From: Thermoproteota archaeon
GTDB lineage: Archaea > Korarchaeota > Korarchaeia > Korarchaeales > Korarchaeaceae
Length of the DNA stretch: 64,000 nt
Assembly: GCA_027492205.1 (NCBI GenBank)
Contig: JAOZFN010000010.1
Location: 61,924 to 125,923 of the forward strand
Reading direction: 5' to 3'
Below are positions 294 through 19,185 of this stretch, piece after piece. A model generated the notes under the pieces. The model made no database searches, was not told the origin of the DNA, and saw nothing but the letters and a program-made list of their open reading frames with translations. The number at the start of each line of letters is the position of its first letter. The first letter of the stretch is position 1. A program made the translations under genes and the position numbers.

Positions 294-1943
294 TTAACGA
301 TCAGTTCCGAACAGAATCCAAGCCCCCCTGAGGGGGTTGAAGTTCCAAATCAGGTCTTGCGAGCAGTTGAGGCACATCCACACTGGGTCGTACGAGTACC
401 CCTCGTCCCTCAACACCGACTCCCTGAAGAAGGCCAGGGCCTCCAGAATGCCGGCCCTCCCGGCGCCTCCCGGGAGATAGTAGTCCGGGTAGGAGAGGGC
501 AAAGGCGAGGAACTCGACTATTCGCGCGTACTCCCCGTCTATCAGCTGTCCCCTCGACGTGGTCGCTATGATCAGGGCCTGGCTGAGCCCCGACACCTCG
601 CGCGCGAAGTCTTCAGCTTCGCAGCCGTTCAAGAGGAGGACGAGCTTGCCGTAGCTCAGGTTGGCCAGCGCCCTCGATAGATACTCCGCAGTCAGGTTCC
701 CAGGGTCGAGGTCGACCCAGTCCCACCCTGCGCCGTGATGGGCGTCTATGACCACGAAGACGATGTCGTTCGGGTCCGACGGGAGGGAGGCGATGGCATG
801 AAGGGCCCTCTCCACGTCCTCCTCGGTCTGGATTATCAGGTCCGGGTAGATCAACCCGGCCGAGGGGGCCTTCCTCCTCCGGCCCCAGGGGACGTCGGAC
901 ATGTACATGCCGACTTGGAAGGGGCCAGCCCAGCCCCTGGAGAGGTGCGTCCAGTACAGGGCCGTGGCGTCAAGTCCCTCCTCGGTTCGGAGGGACGTCT
1001 GGCTGACGATGAGGAGTATGCTGTCCTCGCCGTAGCCGTGCCTCTTCGCGAGGTGGTAGAGCATGAGAGAGCCGCCGGCCCCTATCCTGCCTCCCTGAAT
1101 TATCACGAGATACCTCTGGGACCTCCCGTAGAGCGCGTTAAGTCTCGGATTGTCCAGATCGTTCATGGGATCAGTTCCAGCCTCCAGCTCCTCAAGGTTG
1201 GAGAAGCCATCCGAGTCCACGTCTCCGCGCAGGACCTCACCTCCCAACAGGCCCGACTGGCACAGGTCCACGACGTAGTAGAAGGGGAGCGCCTCCAGGG
1301 CGAGCAGAGCGGACGTCTCTCCGTCGTCGACCACCCCGTCGCTCAACACGGCATCCACAACCCTCGAAACGCAGCCGCGCGTCTCTTCCACAGCGAAGAG
1401 TCTAGAGTATTCTGGAGGAGGTCCGCGCAGGATACCCTCCACGACCCTGACAAGGGCCCACTCTCCTTCCTCCATCCTCCCGTCTGCCTCGAGCCGAGAC
1501 AGCATTCGATAGACCCACCTCTCCATCCCCGTGTGGATGGCGAAGGATAGGAGGGGGCTGGCCGAGAGCGGGTTGCCACCCCAGCTGAACTCGTCCCCGT
1601 CGCAGATCCCATCTCCATCCGTGTCCCAGAGTACGGGGGAGGTTCCAATCTTCACTTCGAAGCCGTCCATCAGCCCGTCTAGGTCCGTGTCGAACTTTCC
1701 CACCTTTGTCCTGTAGACCAGCTCCTCCAGCGCGTCGGCGAGCATGTCGTCATCTCTGTCCACCAGACCGAACGTGAGTGTGGTCAGGCTGTCCAGCTGA
1801 CTCAGCAGGAGCGCAAATGACAGGAGAGCACTTAGTCTCTTGGCCCTCGTCCTCCAGCGGATCAACCTCAGCGCGCTCAGAAGGCACGGGGGTGAACATA
1901 ACGATTTGCCCCAGACCAAAGCGGTCCTCCAGGCCTGATTCAA
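294..1943 (-). CDS. Secreted/membrane-anchored clan CD (C13 legumain-like, caspase-hemoglobinase fold) cysteine peptidase with TSP3-like Ca-binding repeats
   Basis: N-terminal hydrophobic helix; DxDxDG repeats (DTDLDGLMDGFE, DTDGDGICDGDE, DVDSDGFSNLEE); C-terminal IVFVVIDAHHG and LVLLLNGCEA match the His/Cys dyad contexts of C13 peptidases; true start may be downstream of 1943. Confidence 0.7.
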   Translation of the reverse strand: MNQAWRTALVWGKSLCSPPCLLSALRLIRWRTRAKRLSALLSFALLLSQLDSLTTLTFGLVDRDDDMLADALEELVYRTKVGKFDTDLDGLMDGFEVKIGTSPVLWDTDGDGICDGDEFSWGGNPLSASPLLSFAIHTGMERWVYRMLSRLEADGRMEEGEWALVRVVEGILRGPPPEYSRLFAVEETRGCVSRVVDAVLSDGVVDDGETSALLALEALPFYYVVDLCQSGLLGGEVLRGDVDSDGFSNLEELEAGTDPMNDLDNPRLNALYGRSQRYLVIIQGGRIGAGGSLMLYHLAKRHGYGEDSILLIVSQTSLRTEEGLDATALYWTHLSRGWAGPFQVGMYMSDVPWGRRRKAPSAGLIYPDLIIQTEEDVERALHAIASLPSDPNDIVFVVIDAHHGAGWDWVDLDPGNLTAEYLSRALANLSYGKLVLLLNGCEAEDFAREVSGLSQALIIATTSRGQLIDGEYARIVEFLAFALSYPDYYLPGGAGRAGILEALAFFRESVLRDEGYSYDPVWMCLNCSQDLIWNFNPLRGAWILFGTDR

Positions 1944-2085: not shown

Positions 2086-2110
2086 ACTAAAATCTTTAAT
2101 TAATTGATAA
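2086..2110 (+). promoter_or_regulatory. Archaeal BRE/TATA promoter of the 7TM-longin-GTPase operon
   Basis: AT-rich island CTAAAATCTTTAATTAATTGATAA about 40-55 bp upstream of starts at 2143/2152. Confidence 0.55.
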
Positions 2111-2142: not shown

Positions 2143-2756
2143 GTGTGGTTCATGTTGGGCTTGAGCTTGTTGTGGAGGGTGGTGGCTTGGGAGTTCCTAG
2201 TGGCAGCCGCCGCCTATCTCCTAATGGCCGTCACAACCGGTCTTTCACCTAAGAAGTCCCCGCAGGTGGGATTCTTTGCACTTGGCTTTGTCTTTCTGTC
2301 GCTGGCCATGGCCGCCAGGTTCGTCTCCCTGTTTCTCCCCCCCCCGCCGTCAGGTGGAAGCTGACAATACCCTCTGGGGCCCTAGTCTTCATGTCGGCTT
2401 CGGCCCTCCTCAGCGGGTTCACCAGGCCCTCGTCAAGGCCGATTGCCGAGGCTGGGGTGATCGTTGCCGGGACCGCGGTACTGGCAATGGCTGGCAACGA
2501 TCCCTCCGGTCTGTCCCTGATTGAGTTCTGCTACGGCGTCGTATTCCTCATCCTGTTCGCCCTAGCGGCCCGGGTTTACTCAAAGTCTGGCCTGTCCACC
2601 CACCTCTTTCTAGCCTTGGGGCTTTTGCTGGTGGGCCTGTCCGGCCTGTTGCCCGCGATCACCCTCCCGCTCCTGTCTCACGCTCGTCTCCTCCTGACGG
2701 CCTCCCTTCACCTGGGCGCCGCCGTGTCATTCGTGTGGGCGCTCGCGGGGGTCTGA
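2143..2756 (+). CDS. 7-TM membrane protein (putative receptor/sensor), split by a 1-nt frameshift in a C9 tract
   Basis: ORFs 2143-2364 and 2391-2756 fuse if C9 at 2337-2345 is C10 (..SLFLPPPAVRWKLTIPSGALVFMSAS..), giving about 204 aa with seven hydrophobic segments. Confidence 0.7.
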
Positions 2757-2758
2757 GA

Positions 2759-3175
2759 ATGGGCCTGAGGGACGTCTACGTCTTCGAGGATCGCACGGGT
2801 AGGCTGGTGTTTGCCAAGTCGTACGGGAGTCTCAGGGGGGACGAGGATCTAATCTCAGGGTTCCTGTCCTCGATTCAAAACTTCCTCGCCGAGGTCGCGG
2901 AGGACGAGATAAAGGAAATCTCGGGAAGGAGGTTCAGGTTCCTGTTTAAGAGGGCGGGAGACTGCGTTGTTTGCGTCGTCGTTGACGGTAGCGAGGGCTC
3001 CGAGTCGTCCAAGAGGCTGCTGGACAGCGTTGCCAAGGCCTTCTTGAAGGCCAGCAGGGTGGCCGGTCTCAGGCGGCTGGATCAGTTCGAGAAGAAGTGC
3101 GACGAGATAGCGGAGAGCTGGGGGAAGCTGGTCAGATGGAGTGAGGCTCTAGACCAGCTCGATGAATGGGGGTGA
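2759..3175 (+). CDS. Longin-domain protein
   Basis: VYVFEDRTGRLVFAKSY...DEDLISGFLSSIQNFLAEV..EIKEI..: beta-beta-alpha-beta-beta-beta-alpha-alpha pattern typical of archaeal longin domains; ATG 2 nt after the 7TM stop. Confidence 0.8.
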   Translation: MGLRDVYVFEDRTGRLVFAKSYGSLRGDEDLISGFLSSIQNFLAEVAEDEIKEISGRRFRFLFKRAGDCVVCVVVDGSEGSESSKRLLDSVAKAFLKASRVAGLRRLDQFEKKCDEIAESWGKLVRWSEALDQLDEWG

Positions 3176-3878
3176 GACCCTGGGCCTCAGCGCCATAGAA
3201 CTCCTCGAGTCCCTCCTACCAGAGTTCGTCTCAGCGGTTACGGAGGCTCTCAAATCACTCGGCCTCTCCCCCGGGGATCAGCTGGACGACGATCACCTCA
3301 CGCAGATTTTCAGGGAAGTCTCCCGGTCTCTCGGTAAGGCGAGAGCTTACCAGGCGCTCCGCGAGGCGGGCGTAGTGAGGGGGATCACCAGGGTGAAGGC
3401 ATTCGTGGTGGGAGACGCCGCGGTGGGGAAGACGACGTTCTGCGTCAAGCTGGCGACGGGAAGGTTCAAAGAGGAGTACAAGATGACGGTTGGGGTCGAC
3501 TTCTACACGCTAGACCTGATAAGCGGTGGCAGGCTTGTGAAGCTTGTGCTCTGGGACCTAGCGGGCCAGGAGAGGTTCGGCCTGGTGAGACCGAATTTCT
3601 ACGCCGGATCCAGCGGGGGTTTCATTGCATTCGCCTTGGACAGGCCCGAGACCCTTCGCAGCGTGCCGGGGTGGGTCAGGGAGATAGAGGAGAACGTGGG
3701 AAGGAGGGTTCCGGCCGTTCTGATCGGCACCAAGCTGGACCTCTCCCCGAGTCTTCTCGAGGCCTCGAACATCGCCGAGGAACTGGACCTGGTGGGCTAC
3801 GTGCCCGTGGGCTCAAAGACCGGAGAGAACCTCATGAGAGCCGTCAGGATGCTCATTTCGGCCTGCGTCAACATCTAG
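3162..3878 (+). CDS. Rab/Ras-like small GTPase with about 75-aa helical N-terminal extension
   Basis: G1 GDAAVGKT, G2 YKMTVGVDF, G3 WDLAGQERF, G4 TKLD, G5 GSKTG; overlaps the longin stop by 14 nt. Confidence 0.92.
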   Translation: MNGGETLGLSAIELLESLLPEFVSAVTEALKSLGLSPGDQLDDDHLTQIFREVSRSLGKARAYQALREAGVVRGITRVKAFVVGDAAVGKTTFCVKLATGRFKEEYKMTVGVDFYTLDLISGGRLVKLVLWDLAGQERFGLVRPNFYAGSSGGFIAFALDRPETLRSVPGWVREIEENVGRRVPAVLIGTKLDLSPSLLEASNIAEELDLVGYVPVGSKTGENLMRAVRMLISACVNI

Positions 3879-5485: not shown

Positions 5486-6823
5486 ATGAGTGAGGAAGGC
5501 GAGGTTGCGGGCGCGCCCCGCAGGGTGAGCCTCGGGGTAGACCCGCTTGACTTGTTGTTGGATGGGGTTCAGCCTGGATCGATTCTAACAATGTTAGGGC
5601 CGCCAGGATCTGGGGCGAGCACACTAGCCGTGGAATTCATGCTAAAAGACGTCGAGAGGGGGGAGAGGGCCGCGGTTCTCCTGACCACTCGGAGAACCTG
5701 GGAGCTCCTGAGGATCGCCGAGGCCTACGGGCAGGAACTGAAGAAGGGGTTGGACGGCAGGCTGATCAAGGTCGTGGAGATCGAAAACCCGTTCGCTCAG
5801 AGCGAAGTGAACGAGGTCCTGGTCGAGTTCTTCACGGCCCTTGAGGAGTTCAAGCCTAGCCGCGTCTACGTAGACGTGATAGACCCCCTCCTAGTGACCC
5901 TCGGACGAAGGGGTCTGATGTCGGGGCTCATAGGGCCGTTGATCGAACTCTCCCGCAGAAAGAAGCTTCTGACGCTCATCAGATGTGCGACGCCTAGGAC
6001 GTACTCTCTCCTCTCCCAGTTCTCGACGGGGGCCTTTAGACTGGAGTGGAGCCCCGAGACGAGGGAGGGGGGTAGCCTGAGGAAGCTGGTGCTGGACAAC
6101 CTCCGCGACATCCCGCACCTAGAGTCCTCGACCGAGTTTAAGTTAATTCCAGGGGACGGGATAAGGGCGATAAGGCCTGGAGAACTCCCTGAGTGGCTGG
6201 AGCGAATCCCCTCGGGACTCCCAGATCTGGACTCCGCCATCGGAGGCGGATACCCCTCGGGCTCGATGGTGCTGATCTCCGGCGGCTCTGGCTCCGGGAA
6301 GACCCTCCTCGCCCTCAAGTCCTCCGCGATTCTATCCAGTCGAGGACTGCGGGTTCTCTTCGTCAGCTTCGCGGAAGGTTCAGAGGACATCCTCAGGAGG
6401 GTCCGATCCCTTGGAGACGAGGTGACCGACTTCAGGGCCGTGGGAGCCGATCCCTCCATCGGATCCGTTGCGAGGCACATTCAGGAGCTGAAGGGGGCTC
6501 TCACTGAGCACAGCCCAGACGTCGTGGTCGTGGACGCCTTGGAACTCATGGTCTCCCTGCTGGACAGGTGGGAGGAGGGCCTGAGGTACCTGAGATTTCT
6601 GAGGGGGTGGGTCAGGGATTCAAAGGGACTGGCAGTCGTGTCGACAGGTAAGAATTCCTTTGTGGAGCTTGCCAGCCCACTGTTCGACGTCTCGCTGGAG
6701 CTGGAGGTCCTAGAGGTGGGCGACCGCCTCGTGAGGACGCTCAAGGTTCGGAAGGTGTCCTACGGTGGTGGGTCGGCGAGGAGGATACCCCTCTCCAGCT
6801 TAGACGGGTCAGGCCCGAGGTAG
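5486..6823 (+). CDS. KaiC/RAD55-like double-domain RecA-fold ATPase
   Basis: Two RecA domains: degenerate GPPGSGAS and intact GGSGSGKT; RIPSGLPDLDSAIGGG; R-x-L-x-V-x-K ends; TTTAAAT promoter at about 5444. Confidence 0.88.
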   Translation: MSEEGEVAGAPRRVSLGVDPLDLLLDGVQPGSILTMLGPPGSGASTLAVEFMLKDVERGERAAVLLTTRRTWELLRIAEAYGQELKKGLDGRLIKVVEIENPFAQSEVNEVLVEFFTALEEFKPSRVYVDVIDPLLVTLGRRGLMSGLIGPLIELSRRKKLLTLIRCATPRTYSLLSQFSTGAFRLEWSPETREGGSLRKLVLDNLRDIPHLESSTEFKLIPGDGIRAIRPGELPEWLERIPSGLPDLDSAIGGGYPSGSMVLISGGSGSGKTLLALKSSAILSSRGLRVLFVSFAEGSEDILRRVRSLGDEVTDFRAVGADPSIGSVARHIQELKGALTEHSPDVVVVDALELMVSLLDRWEEGLRYLRFLRGWVRDSKGLAVVSTGKNSFVELASPLFDVSLELEVLEVGDRLVRTLKVRKVSYGGGSARRIPLSSLDGSGPR

Positions 6824-16287: not shown

Positions 16288-16626
16288 TTGAGCGCCTCGG
16301 GGGCAAGGGAGATCACCTGCCCGATATGCGGTCAGAGGCACAGGCCTCCCCTCAGCAGGGGGTGGAACTTCGTCCCCTGCAGCCAGGATCACGGCATAGT
16401 GGTCTTCGTGGACTCTGGCGGAAGCGTCAGGGAGGTCCACGGGGCCTCCCTCTCGAAGGCCGCGAGTGCCCTCGTGCTGGAGGAGGGGAAGCTCCACCTC
16501 GTCCCCAAGTGGATTAATGTGGACAGGATAAGGGCAGTCATCGAGGGCAGGGCGAGCCCCACCGAGGCAGACAGGGCGGGGATCTCCCTGCTCCTAAACC
16601 TGGGGATCTTGAAGAGGAGGACGTAG
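16288..16626 (+). CDS. Small putative zinc-binding protein
   Basis: CPIC..H and C..DH ligands; gene-like codon usage; 30 bp before next gene. Confidence 0.65.
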   Translation: MSASGAREITCPICGQRHRPPLSRGWNFVPCSQDHGIVVFVDSGGSVREVHGASLSKAASALVLEEGKLHLVPKWINVDRIRAVIEGRASPTEADRAGISLLLNLGILKRRT

Positions 16627-16656
16627 GTCATATGGTGATCTCGAGGAGGTGTTAGT

Positions 16657-17679
16657 TTGGCCCGCCCCGCCCTTGCAAAGCTCCTGTCCAAGCTCTCCGG
16701 GACGGCCGGGGGGGCTAGAGTCCCCTCCCACGTCCAAAAGGCCGCCTCGGAGGTCCTGGAGATCTGCGAGTACAGGCTGGTCCTTACGCTGGACTCGATG
16801 GGGTTCTTTAGGGATGTGGAGGGGATCAGCCCGGCAGAGGCGTCCCTGAAGTTCGCCGACAGGTCCCTCTTCTTCTCAATCATGGAGATCCTATCGCAGC
16901 TGGGGTACGTCTCCGTGAGAAGGGGATTTGGCTTCATGGACGGCAGGATTCGGCAGGTTCACGACCTCCCCCCCTCCCCGATGGCCACGACGCCCGAGGC
17001 CATCGAGTTCGACTCCGTCTTCACGGAGATAATCTCCTCCCTGCCGGACGCTCTGAAGGAGGGGAAGAGAAGCCTCCACGTCGCCTCATCGGAGAACAAG
17101 GCCCTCCTGGCCAAGATGTACGACTCAGAGGTCTTCAAGACCCTCCTCACGCTGGAGGTCAAGTCCCTGGGGATCTCCGACGTCCCGCCGCACGGGGTCA
17201 TAGTCTCGCTCGGCCCCGGCGTCGGGGCCGAGCTGCCAACCGTCCTCCTGGAGTCTGACGCCAGGGTGATATCGGTGCTGAGCAGCGAGGACGACGCGAG
17301 AATCGCAGAGCTGACGCTGTCCGGCCTGGGCCTCCTTAGCGATCAGGTCAGGTTCGTGGTTGGTCAGCCGGAGAGGCTCCACAGGATAATAGAGGAGGCC
17401 AAGACCGGCCCCGTCGACGCGGTCGTGGTGGTCCACTCGCTCCACTGGTCCAACGCGCCGGAGGCCTGCCTCAGAAACGCGTCGAAGGTGTCTCGGAGGG
17501 TTATGGTATCTCAGCCCGTCCTCAGCGAGGCGACCTGGCCTCTGTCCATAGCGAGCTACCTGCTGGGATCGAACATCCTCCCGAAGCCCGACCAGATAGA
17601 CTTCTGGGTGAACTCAGCCGGGCTGTCCGGGAGGACCCTGATGACGAACCCGATTTACTTGGCCCAGCTCGTGAGGTGA
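16657..17679 (+). CDS. Divergent class I SAM-methyltransferase-fold protein with N-terminal helical/wHTH-like region
   Basis: GGAGGTG RBS; IVSLGPGVG (motif-I-like, acidic residue lost), DAVVVVHSLHW, ILSQLGYV. Confidence 0.6.
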   Translation: MARPALAKLLSKLSGTAGGARVPSHVQKAASEVLEICEYRLVLTLDSMGFFRDVEGISPAEASLKFADRSLFFSIMEILSQLGYVSVRRGFGFMDGRIRQVHDLPPSPMATTPEAIEFDSVFTEIISSLPDALKEGKRSLHVASSENKALLAKMYDSEVFKTLLTLEVKSLGISDVPPHGVIVSLGPGVGAELPTVLLESDARVISVLSSEDDARIAELTLSGLGLLSDQVRFVVGQPERLHRIIEEAKTGPVDAVVVVHSLHWSNAPEACLRNASKVSRRVMVSQPVLSEATWPLSIASYLLGSNILPKPDQIDFWVNSAGLSGRTLMTNPIYLAQLVR

Positions 17680-17808
17680 CGGGAGAGATTTCGGGACGCT
17701 CCAGCACCCAGATCCAGTCTGAACTCATCTCTCCGACGGGTATACCGGAGTATGAAACTTGCGAGGGGCCCATTATATCTCGGCGGCCGCACTTCGGCGG
17801 GGAGCGCG

Positions 17809-18279
17809 TTGAGGCGGCTCAAGGTCATCTTCGCGGGCGAGTCAGGGGTGGGTAAGACCAGCGTGGCCGCGGCCATCTCGGCCGCCGGCCTGGCCAGCGG
17901 CGGGCCGACGATAGGGGCCGACTTCTTCGTCTCGGGTCCAGACGGGGTCAGGGCCGTGATCTTCGACCTGGCCGGGCAGGACCGCTTCGCACCGCTTGCC
18001 CCGCTGCTCTCGCGCGGCGCGAGGGTCGTCGTCCTCATATTCGACGTCTCCAGGCCGGAGACCCTGCTGGCAATTCCGGATTGGGCCGAGAGGGTTCTCA
18101 ACGGAACGGAAGACGCGAAGGTGGTCCTAGTGGGGAACAAGCTCGACGCGGGCCTCCGAGTGACGCCGGAGGACATCGCGTCTGTGGCGGCGGCGGTCGG
18201 CGCCCACAGGGTCATCCTGACGAGCGCTTCCACCGGATTCGGACTCAACGAACTCAGAGAGGAGCTCTTAGAGGCCTGA
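17809..18279 (+). CDS. Minimal Rab/Ras-like small GTPase
   Basis: GESGVGKT, PTIGADF, FDLAGQDRF, GNKLD, TSASTG; TTG start after TTATAT at about 17773. Confidence 0.9.
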   Translation: MRRLKVIFAGESGVGKTSVAAAISAAGLASGGPTIGADFFVSGPDGVRAVIFDLAGQDRFAPLAPLLSRGARVVVLIFDVSRPETLLAIPDWAERVLNGTEDAKVVLVGNKLDAGLRVTPEDIASVAAAVGAHRVILTSASTGFGLNELREELLEA

Positions 18280-18326: not shown

Positions 18327-18632
18327 ATGAGGGGTACCCTCGCCCTCTTGACCCTTGGCGCTCTGCTCATCGCCGCCCTGGTGGCGGGCTTCTCACTGCT
18401 GAGGCTCTTGGCAATCTTGGCGGCGGCGGGGTTCCTCTCCGGCGCGGCGTTCGGCGCCGCCTCCTCATCGGGCGGCCTCTCCCGGAGAGTGAAGTGGGCC
18501 CTGAAGGGCGGCCTGATTCTGGGGGCCCTGATGCCGGTGGCCGCGGCCCTCGCTATTCCGCTGGCGGCCGCCGGGCTGGTCATAGCGGCCGCCGGCGAGA
18601 TCCTGTCTGCCCTCGACGAAGGCGGAGCTTGA
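18327..18632 (+). CDS. Small Gly/Ala-rich membrane protein
   Basis: GGAGGG RBS, ATG, 3-4 hydrophobic segments. Confidence 0.6.
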   Translation: MRGTLALLTLGALLIAALVAGFSLLRLLAILAAAGFLSGAAFGAASSSGGLSRRVKWALKGGLILGALMPVAAALAIPLAAAGLVIAAAGEILSALDEGGA

Positions 18633-19185
18633 CCCTCCTCCAAAACTCCCGCAGCTTGGACGGCTCCCTTGGGGGGTTGAGGAACACCGAGAGCGGTATG
18701 TCGCCCGTCGCCGCGGCGAGGGTGAACGCTTCGACGGTTCTGACGGCCTCTTCCTGCTCCCAGCTCTCCACGGCCCCGGGACGAACCCTCCTGACCTTCT
18801 CTATAGCCGCGCTGGCCGTCATGCCCCTGGTGAAGACGAGGTAGGCGGCCGCGAACATGCCCGACCTCCCCCTGCCGGCGAGGCAGTGAACCCCAAGGGG
18901 CCTCCCCATCGAGACGACCCTCCTCGCCCACAGGAGGGCGTTGATCAGCTCTTCAGGCTCCGGAGACCTCCTAGTCTCCGTCGGGAGGAAGTACGGCCAG
19001 ACGTCGTTGTCGAGCATGGCCCTCGCGAACAGGAGCACGTTTCCCCAGTACGTGAGGATCTCCCTCCCAGTCGCCAGGGACACGACCGCCCTGACTCCCT
19101 GGAGCCTGAGCTTCCTGACGGCCTCCCTGTCCACCGGAAAGCCGCAGATGGCCAGTTCACCCGGGATCACCCAGAGGACCCACAA
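18580..19185 (-). CDS. Dual-specificity/protein-tyrosine phosphatase
   Basis: HCLAGRGRSG (CX5R), VRRVRPGAVES..Q. Confidence 0.92.
   Translation of the reverse strand: MWVLWVIPGELAICGFPVDREAVRKLRLQGVRAVVSLATGREILTYWGNVLLFARAMLDNDVWPYFLPTETRRSPEPEELINALLWARRVVSMGRPLGVHCLAGRGRSGMFAAAYLVFTRGMTASAAIEKVRRVRPGAVESWEQEEAVRTVEAFTLAAATGDIPLSVFLNPPREPSKLREFWRRVKLRLRRGQTGSRRRPL

Follow-up and report, generated by a model that had tools for sequence, protein, structure and literature searches.

We analysed a 64,000-nucleotide stretch of DNA from a Korarchaeal genome (assembly GCA_027492205.1, contig JAOZFN010000010.1; hereafter the window), in which a cluster of three genes encodes a polytopic membrane protein, a longin-domain protein and a Rab-like small GTPase. 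Comparison with related genomes showed that a polytopic membrane protein, a longin-domain protein and the orthologous Rab-like GTPase are persistently linked in two genera despite a changed gene order. We propose, giving the idea about an even chance of being right, that the three genes encode one membrane-bound small-GTPase switch, in which the longin would be the regulator platform and the membrane protein would provide attachment and input. The features concerned, numbered within the window, are the following.

2143-3878, forward strand: three-gene cluster of membrane protein, longin and Rab-like GTPase, from open reading frames (ORFs) and their translations
2089..2101, forward strand: promoter-like element consisting of a purine run, like a transcription factor B recognition element (BRE), and a TATA-like box, CTTTAATT, kept in four of four genus members
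2143..2756, forward strand: gene for a seven-helix membrane protein of about 203 aa, split into the ORFs 2143-2364 and 2391-2756, as judged from intact orthologues
2337..2345, forward strand: C9 homopolymer that breaks the frame of this gene, as judged from relatives with two C fewer
2759..3175, forward strand: stand-alone longin-fold protein of 138 aa, as predicted with AlphaFold2, Foldseek and VIA-align
3162..3878, forward strand: Rab-like small GTPase of 238 aa, with a helical-looking N-terminal extension of about 75 aa followed by the G domain (Pfam Ras)

All three genes lie on one strand and are tightly packed: 2 nt separate the end of the membrane gene from the longin ATG at 2759, and the end of the longin gene (stop at 3175) overlaps the start of the GTPase gene (ATG at 3162) by 14 nt, a spacing that leaves too little room for internal promoters. 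These coordinates agree with the initial annotation, which had described three tightly coupled genes with just this gap and overlap behind one TATA promoter. As for the promoter, an alignment of the upstream regions showed that AAAA-T-CTTTAATT at 2089-2101, about 40 nt 5' of the GTG start of the membrane gene, is invariant in four of four genus members while its flanks diverge. Such invariance amid diverging flanks matches the expectation for an archaeal BRE/TATA element, so that at the level of sequence a TATA promoter in front of the operon appears probable. The names BRE and TATA follow general knowledge of archaeal promoters. A scan for bacterial-type promoters and terminators gave no match, in keeping with an archaeal host. 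A gene upstream of the operon and divergent from it (294-1943, reverse strand) encodes a 549-aa protein that has bacterial TSP3 repeats (E 2.8e-9) and weakly matches peptidase C13 (legumain-like); in G001 and G003, two relatives introduced below, the start of this gene is likewise kept upstream of the membrane gene.

We compared the cluster with those of other Korarchaeota, namely the genus of the window (g1; genomes G001 to G004 besides the window's own) and its sister genus (g2; G005, G012, G015 and G018 among its members). A search with the GTPase gave a match in 13 of 41 related genomes, and clear orthologues were present in all four g1 genomes besides that of the window and in five of five g2 genomes; no orthologue was found in g3 (0 of 10 genomes) or g5 (0 of 4). 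A longin profile matched 9 of the 43 phylum genomes, all of them in g1 and g2 (2 of 10 genera), and missed G002, which is 72% complete. The order in g1 is membrane protein, longin, GTPase (window, G001, G003 and G004), and in g2 it is longin protein, membrane protein, GTPase (G005 with two copies, G012, G015 and G018). The g2 cluster consists of a 304-aa protein, an eight-helix membrane protein of 250-267 aa and the orthologous GTPase, with frames that overlap or abut as in the window. All three gene kinds were found together in 9 of the 11 loci with upstream context. Of the synteny initially put forward, a seven-transmembrane (7TM) protein followed by a longin and a GTPase, the togetherness of the three kinds holds in two genera but the order does not, since it differs in g2. 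An alignment matches the stand-alone longin to the N-terminal ~125 residues of the g2 304-aa protein, and the second domain of the latter has no likeness to the longin (hhalign probability 0.1%). The longin alignment contains no Arg that is invariant across both genera. As a lead only, the ESM Atlas model of the g2 eight-helix protein resembles the N-terminal membrane modules of bacterial GGDEF/EAL/histidine-kinase proteins (template modelling score 0.69-0.77).

In the window itself the membrane gene is broken. It appears as an ORF of 73 aa in frame 1 (2143-2364) and another of 121 aa in frame 3 (2391-2756), and the C9 run at 2337-2345 is one of only three homopolymers of at least nine bases in the 1.94-Mb genome to which the window belongs (G000). 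A continuous 203-aa product is obtained when the run is read as two four-base steps, and this product shares 94% identity with the intact orthologue (203 aa; L002:477-1088) of G001, the closest relative genome compared. G001, whose DNA is 97.3% identical to the window over 11.7 kb, has the same residues around the break site and two C fewer in the run, showing that the initial annotation was right to repair the C9 tract and to read one gene there, with a product of about 204 aa. The intact genes of three congeners encode 203-205 aa: besides G001, these are G003 (L003; 205 aa) and G004 (L004; an ORF of 230 aa from an upstream TTG, of which 202 aa were used). A related-strain contig in the public run X1 (share 0.07) also has two bases fewer at 2337. 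The membrane gene is single-copy in the window's genome and occurs at this locus only. The two extra C mean either that the module is inactive in this strain or that the sequence is misassembled at this point.

That the break is an artefact of assembly or sequencing, or reflects a minority variant taken into the consensus, and that the gene is intact in the living population, has in our view slightly less than an even chance. The gene is otherwise free of stops and still reads through to a close match of the G001 protein, the two genes flanking it are intact, and homopolymers are classic error sites, of which a run this long is a rare instance in this genome. On the other hand, an excess of two bases is unusual among short-read errors, and the 16 indel events over 11.7 kb against G001 are few and mostly outside such runs, indicating that homopolymer errors are not common throughout the assembly; in G009, too, copies of the module have decayed. 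Programmed frameshifting at the C run was considered as the main explanation and rejected because the run is not conserved: the equivalent site has no Pro run in G003, a different Pro run in G004 and a shorter, in-frame run in G001.

The predicted structure confirmed that the second gene product has a longin fold. AlphaFold2 gave the topology strand-strand-helix-strand-strand-strand-helix-helix (E3-10, E16-21, H29-45, E52-55, E59-66, E69-76, H81-99, H105-120) with a predicted local distance difference test score (pLDDT) of 71.6. In a Foldseek search with this model, 73 structures of the PDB matched at E<=0.001, AP-2 sigma being the first (1.3e-6); zeta-COP and the longins of VAMP7 and Sec22b were among the other leading matches, and LAMTOR and TRAPP subunits stood lower down. 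VIA-align superposed the model on the VAMP7 longin with a Z of 12.2 (112 aligned residues, root-mean-square deviation (rmsd) 2.8), followed by synbindin (Z 11.9), the TRAPP core (11.1-11.2), CPLANE (10.9), BLOC-3 (9.7) and Mon1-Ccz1 (8.6-8.9), and its top 21 rows were all longin-type domains. The best matches are longins, which align over 112-123 residues, against 91-100 for Roadblock domains; the MglB, MglC and Roadblock chains reached a Z of 9.2-9.6 over 95-98 residues, and SRX and LAMTOR chains also belong to the structural matches. Topology, Foldseek and VIA-align are thus in accord with the stand-alone longin that had been read from the sequence. Sequence searches gave fainter signals: PF13774 (Longin) matched the sister-genus 304-aa proteins at E 0.026-0.055, and the longin profile against PDB sequences gave a best E of 0.33. 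A search for fused longin forms of 533-2000 aa found none at E<=0.01, and such a search is weak evidence by the tool's own statement.

The third product is a small GTPase of the Ras superfamily by both Pfam Ras (PF00071; 111.6 bits against a cut-off of 21.6, E 3.7e-32) and TIGR00231 small_GTP (51 bits against a cut-off of 42.5). The P-loop GDAAVGKT, the switch I Thr in YKMTVGVDF and the DxxGQ motif in WDLAGQE are invariant in eight of eight orthologues. Its best PDB matches were Rab-43 (4.7e-27), a Thorarchaeota Rab (1.5e-22), Rab-4B and Rab-1A/B (~1e-21) and Ran (~1e-20), and these matches, the Pfam result and the presence of TVGVDF and WDLAGQERF bear out the Rab-like assignment made initially. 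The RabF motifs look partly kept (VGVDF). The N-terminal extension of about 75 aa is kept in all eight orthologues of the two genera and matches no family. A C-terminal Cys occurs in only three of the eight sequences (window, G001 and G004) and is absent from G003 and from the four sister-genus sequences, so that there is no conserved C-terminal Cys prenylation motif. Just 3' of the GTPase start codon we found a 1-nt indel between the window (3162-3185) and L002 (1494-1515); as a consequence the frames of G000 and G001 begin at different ATGs and their first ~8 residues differ, and the true start may lie slightly further in.

The membrane protein is predicted to consist almost entirely of helices. 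Of the three genus orthologues scored for hydropathy, two showed seven hydrophobic segments and one showed six at the threshold used, and AlphaFold2 with six sequences gave seven long helices joined by very short loops (pLDDT 73.3, predicted template modelling score 0.73). The product has no soluble domain, and hydropathy and model agree with the seven hydrophobic segments and the lack of a soluble domain that the initial annotation had noted. No Pfam or NCBIfam family matched the protein, and neither a kinase nor an ATPase domain was found in it. A word-based search of 5.8 billion clusters returned four clusters of close relatives (71-100% identity), one of them labelled Candidatus Korarchaeota by its source, and a profile search of 1.84 billion representatives returned a single protein, that of its own cluster, and hence no sequence relative outside the genus. 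Across Pfam, NCBIfam and this profile search, no sequence relation to any receptor or sensor family was found. Foldseek against the PDB gave no match at E<=0.001 (best E 0.053), and the weak matches listed were 7TM bundles of G-protein-coupled receptors (GPCRs) and rhodopsins. With VIA-align, a designed GPCR-like fold was superposed over ~180 residues (Z 14.8, rmsd 3.6) and the 7TM domains of class C GPCRs gave Z 10.4-11.6 (mGlu1 11.6, GABA-B 11.5, GPRC5D 11.1); as the program warns that helical bundles reach a Z of ~13-14 by arrangement alone, we claim for the model only that it is a 7TM bundle with a GPCR-like shape.

In the genus alignment of the membrane protein 92 of 205 columns are invariant, with concentrations of such residues in two loops, the one that follows helix 1 (LSPK-K-PQVGFF) and the one that follows helix 3 (PSSRP). 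The positive-inside rule, judged by eye, would put the C-terminus and loops 1 and 3 in the cytoplasm and the N-terminus outside, and we take these two loops as a candidate docking surface. As leads only, the nearest ESM Atlas feature clusters are unnamed 200-aa proteins of Bacillota, one of them auto-named 'Histidine kinase family protein' (0.95), and HisKA_7TM was an Atlas lead at 0.79.

To place the cluster among its relatives we used the GTPase alignment as query in a scan of one genome per species, which yielded 80 loci, 9 Korarchaeal and 71 others. The non-Korarchaeal loci are nearly all Asgard Rab-like GTPases, 36-44% identical over the G domain and without the N-terminal extension. The profiles of both membrane families matched only in the Korarchaeal loci (0 of the 71 others), and in the eight non-Korarchaeal loci whose ORFs were listed no many-pass membrane gene adjoined the GTPase gene. 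The longin profile matched three Asgard ORFs. In L077 a 143-aa longin directly precedes a second small GTPase gene, and in L041, as well as in L043 from Borrarchaeum, longin-matching proteins of ~400 aa directly follow Rab-like genes that are among the nearest relatives. The pairs of L041 and L043 have KaiC-like ATPase genes on both sides (L041 3178-3858 and 5815-6570; L043 3173-3853 and 5819-6571), with response-regulator genes nearby. A KaiC-like gene is also present near the Korarchaeal cluster:

5486..6823, forward strand: two-domain KaiC-like ATPase (Pfam KaiC 4.1e-28), a possible associate only

This gene begins 1.6 kb downstream of the GTPase gene, with an antisense gene for a major facilitator superfamily transporter in between, and in G004 (L004 2-964) the KaiC-like gene lies ~530 bp downstream of the GTPase gene.

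The host lies outside Asgard, and a tree of G domains was built from 115 sequences (5 fragments of 120 were dropped) that include no eukaryotic ones. The nine Korarchaeal module GTPases form one clade (96 in the Shimodaira-Hasegawa-like approximate likelihood ratio test) that is separate from the other small GTPases of the same genomes. Its sister grouping with Thor/Hermod sequences had a support of 81, the backbone among the Asgard groups was not resolved and the root was not clean, so that no direction of transfer can be claimed and an origin of the GTPase by transfer from Asgard was set aside. Among the scanned loci, L091, on a contig titled Candidatus Nanopelagicaceae bacterium, carries the typical Asgard combination of a small GTPase with a multidomain Rab-like protein that the contig end truncates (~550 aa in other loci); the pair is nearly identical to Promethearchaeota loci, and L091 is probably a misbinned contig.

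These observations suggest how the three products may work together. In TRAPP, Mon1-Ccz1, Ragulator and MglB, longin and Roadblock dimers serve as the platforms for the GTPase, according to the available part of PMC10933270, and the longin of the cluster would likewise bind the GTPase and set its nucleotide state. Because the GTPase has no lipid-anchor motif, it would reach the membrane through its partners: the seven-helix protein would hold the longin at the membrane via the conserved loops 1 and 3, placed in the cytoplasm, and would pass the state of the membrane or of a ligand on to it. Exchange would be likelier than hydrolysis as the regulated step, because the GTPase keeps the catalytic Gln and the longin has no invariant Arg. 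In its GTP-bound form the GTPase would act on an effector, possibly the nearby KaiC-like ATPase. In this scheme the role of the polytopic protein as membrane attachment and input of the switch is probable, and we infer the protein contacts, the sensing and the direction of regulation, that is, whether the longin serves as an exchange factor for guanine nucleotides (GEF) or a GTPase-activating protein (GAP).

Several results weigh against this scheme. The likeness of the 7TM model to the GPCR fold is within the chance range of helical bundles, and the longin is below the Pfam threshold (Fuz_longin_1, 19.1 bits, E 0.0015, against a cut-off of 26.1). The G4 motif of the GTPase is TKxD and not NKxD in eight of eight orthologues (T189 is invariant), so guanine specificity is only presumed. 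No longin of this type was found in 34 of the 43 phylum genomes, and damage was seen in 3 of the 11 loci: the window has its frameshift, G009:C30 (L021 4066-5137) has a deletion that fuses the membrane protein at residue 193 with the GTPase at residue 74, and in G009:C34 (L015 1474-2169) a GTPase remnant with a stop is left and the longin and membrane genes are gone. Damage of this kind and absence from most of the phylum indicate that the module is dispensable. Finally, the g1 and g2 membrane proteins have no sequence likeness (hhalign probability 0.2%). It is therefore possible that the membrane partner was replaced, and this would suit a generic anchor no less than a specific receptor.

The polytopic protein could accordingly be a passive tether for the longin-GTPase pair with no sensing at all, as lipidated LAMTOR1 is for Ragulator-Rag or as the SR-beta membrane anchor is for the SRX longin of SR-alpha, a reading we regard as rather unlikely. 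It would account for a membrane partner that changes between genera, with seven helices in one and eight in the other and no detectable homology, for the very short loops and missing soluble domain of the seven-helix protein, for a GTPase without a lipid-anchor motif, and for the SRX and LAMTOR chains among the matches of the longin model. A single helix would suffice for anchoring, however, and yet seven or eight are kept in both genera; moreover, the transmembrane helices are strongly conserved within the genus (the 92 invariant columns), and the g2 protein resembles, as a lead only, sensor-type membrane modules of bacteria. At the opposite end, the seven-helix protein might be a true receptor of GPCR-like fold that relays a signal from the membrane or a ligand through a longin exchange factor to the Rab-like GTPase, with an interchangeable MASE-like eight-helix sensor in g2. 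We think this unlikely, somewhat more so than the passive tether.

Less probable still is a logic like that of MglB, in which the longin would be a GAP, or a GAP and GEF in one, the membrane protein would mark a site in the cell, and the module would set polarity or localisation without relaying an outside signal. The MglB, MglC and Roadblock chains do match the longin model, a Ras-like GTPase and a Roadblock partner in one operon is a known prokaryotic pattern (in the accessible portions of PMC4316618 and PMC10933270), and eukaryotic longin-domain complexes also act as GAPs (PMC10933270 and PMC12290439, likewise in the portions available). But the best structural matches are longins, which align over more residues than Roadblock domains do, no Arg is invariant in the longins of both genera, and the GTPase is Rab-like and not MglA-like. 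It is also conceivable, and in our judgement very improbable, that the membrane protein is an unrelated small transporter or enzyme that only shares a transcript with the longin-GTPase pair. Two points speak for it: the membrane protein is without a family assignment, and the nearest Asgard longin/Rab-like pairs have no adjoining membrane gene. Against this, a polytopic membrane gene is present in all nine complete loci of the two genera despite rearranged order and overlapping frames, and neither membrane family was found away from the GTPase among the 80 loci, the gene being single-copy in its own genome. The reading that we prefer is a membrane-bound switch in which the polytopic protein would supply the attachment and probably the input.

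The initial annotation knew of no characterised system with such a layout, a statement that does not stand, because the conservon has a comparable logic, as described in the part of PMC4316618 at hand. The closest characterised layout is indeed the actinobacterial conservon (CvnA-CvnD of Streptomyces; the Mfp locus of mycobacteria), in which a membrane histidine kinase and a Roadblock/MglB protein are joined by CvnC and a small GTPase, and which was likened to a G-protein-coupled system by its describers (Komatsu 2006, as cited in the same part of PMC4316618). Both layouts place in one operon a membrane-embedded input, a Roadblock/longin-superfamily protein and a small GTPase of the Ras superfamily. 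They differ in that, going by that account, CvnA is a histidine kinase that contains HAMP and ATPase modules, CvnB a Roadblock/MglB protein and CvnD an MglA-type GTPase, whereas the Korarchaeal operon has a bare seven-helix protein, a longin and a Rab-like GTPase; it contains no CvnC (DUF742) gene, and its host is archaeal instead of actinobacterial.

Longins and small GTPases had been noted at the outset as occurring in Asgard archaea, and operons of Roadblock/longin and Rab-like proteins have in fact been predicted there: the portion of 10.1101/2020.10.19.343400 available describes a LAMTOR1-like Roadblock protein together with a Rab-like GTPase and a DENN protein. Such operons are said to be uncommon in the cultured Asgard archaeon MK-D1 (available text of PMC10933270). 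They resemble the Korarchaeal cluster, as far as that source portrays them, in that a Rab-like GTPase adjoins a candidate regulator of the Roadblock/longin superfamily, and differ in their DENN protein, of which there is none in the window operon; the Asgard loci scanned here also lack a homologue of either membrane protein and the N-terminal extension of the GTPase. MglA-MglB likewise consists of a small Ras-like GTPase and a Roadblock-superfamily regulator encoded together, and MglB superposes on the longin model with a Z of 9.6, but the partner here has longin topology, the GTPase is Rab-like with the DxxGQ Gln, and the cluster includes a membrane protein. The eukaryotic longin regulators of Rabs (the TRAPP core Bet5/Trs23 and the tri-longin Mon1-Ccz1, Fuzzy-Inturned and HPS1-HPS4) share the pairing of a longin with a Rab-type GTPase, and it is a Fuz_longin_1 profile that the longin weakly matches in Pfam; they are multi-subunit or tri-longin assemblies, whereas here a single 138-aa longin is present, and the likeness is structural, resting on the predicted model. 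With 7TM receptors (GPCRs, bacterial 7TM and MASE-type modules) the membrane protein has seven helices in common, and its model superposes on class C 7TM domains over ~180 residues, at Z values that unrelated helical bundles also reach, but it lacks any extracellular or cytoplasmic domain, and, where GPCRs couple to a heterotrimeric G protein, the coupling here would be to a small GTPase via a longin.

Relative to these known systems, what sets the cluster apart is its host, the separate bare seven- or eight-helix membrane gene inside the operon and the N-terminal extension of the GTPase. We found no description of such genes in the literature, as far as its accessible texts reach, on Korarchaeota longins, Korarchaeal Rab-like GTPases and archaeal 7TM/small-GTPase operons, although supplementary tables of surveys may list them; a 2016 survey counts five Rab-like proteins outside Lokiarchaeum and none in Korarchaeota in its available part (PMC4915359).

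The window genome contains two other small GTPases, of 175 and 168 aa (window 16288-18279; L029 2776-5696, G000:C11). Each is preceded by a zinc-ribbon-like protein of 112 aa and by one or two proteins of 340-350 aa that resemble methyltransferases, and these sets look like a second, different GTPase module. In G007 a 139-aa protein two genes upstream of a small GTPase gene begins with a similar Cys-pair motif and has a weak match, just under the cut-off, to DUF742 (the CvnC family of the conservon; E 1.1e-5). About 300 nt past the end of the second small GTPase gene, a convergent gene (18583-19185, reverse strand) encodes a phosphatase of the dual-specificity/protein tyrosine phosphatase type (PTP-SAK 2e-13).

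Studies of how eukaryotic membrane traffic arose rely on the Rab-like GTPases and longin/Roadblock proteins of Asgard archaea, and in MK-D1 the genes are mostly not in operons, so that partners cannot be matched there (as the available text of PMC10933270 has it). The small, operon-defined and probably thermostable trio described here names a specific longin, its GTPase and its membrane partner, which makes binding, exchange and localisation directly testable, and its hosts are two genera of archaea from hot environments outside Asgard. Should the receptor reading be true, a non-Asgard archaeon would have a prokaryotic pathway from receptor through GEF to small G protein; this would be the first case in which an operon defines the pairing of a longin with its Rab-like client and membrane input, and a working model for the first tying of Rab-type switches to membranes. 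The pairing of a longin with a Rab-like GTPase outside Asgard, in 2 of the 10 genera searched in the phylum, bears on whether this pairing was an Asgard invention or part of a wider exchange, and the trio offers a naturally matched set for asking how Rab-like switches were tied to membranes before eukaryotes.

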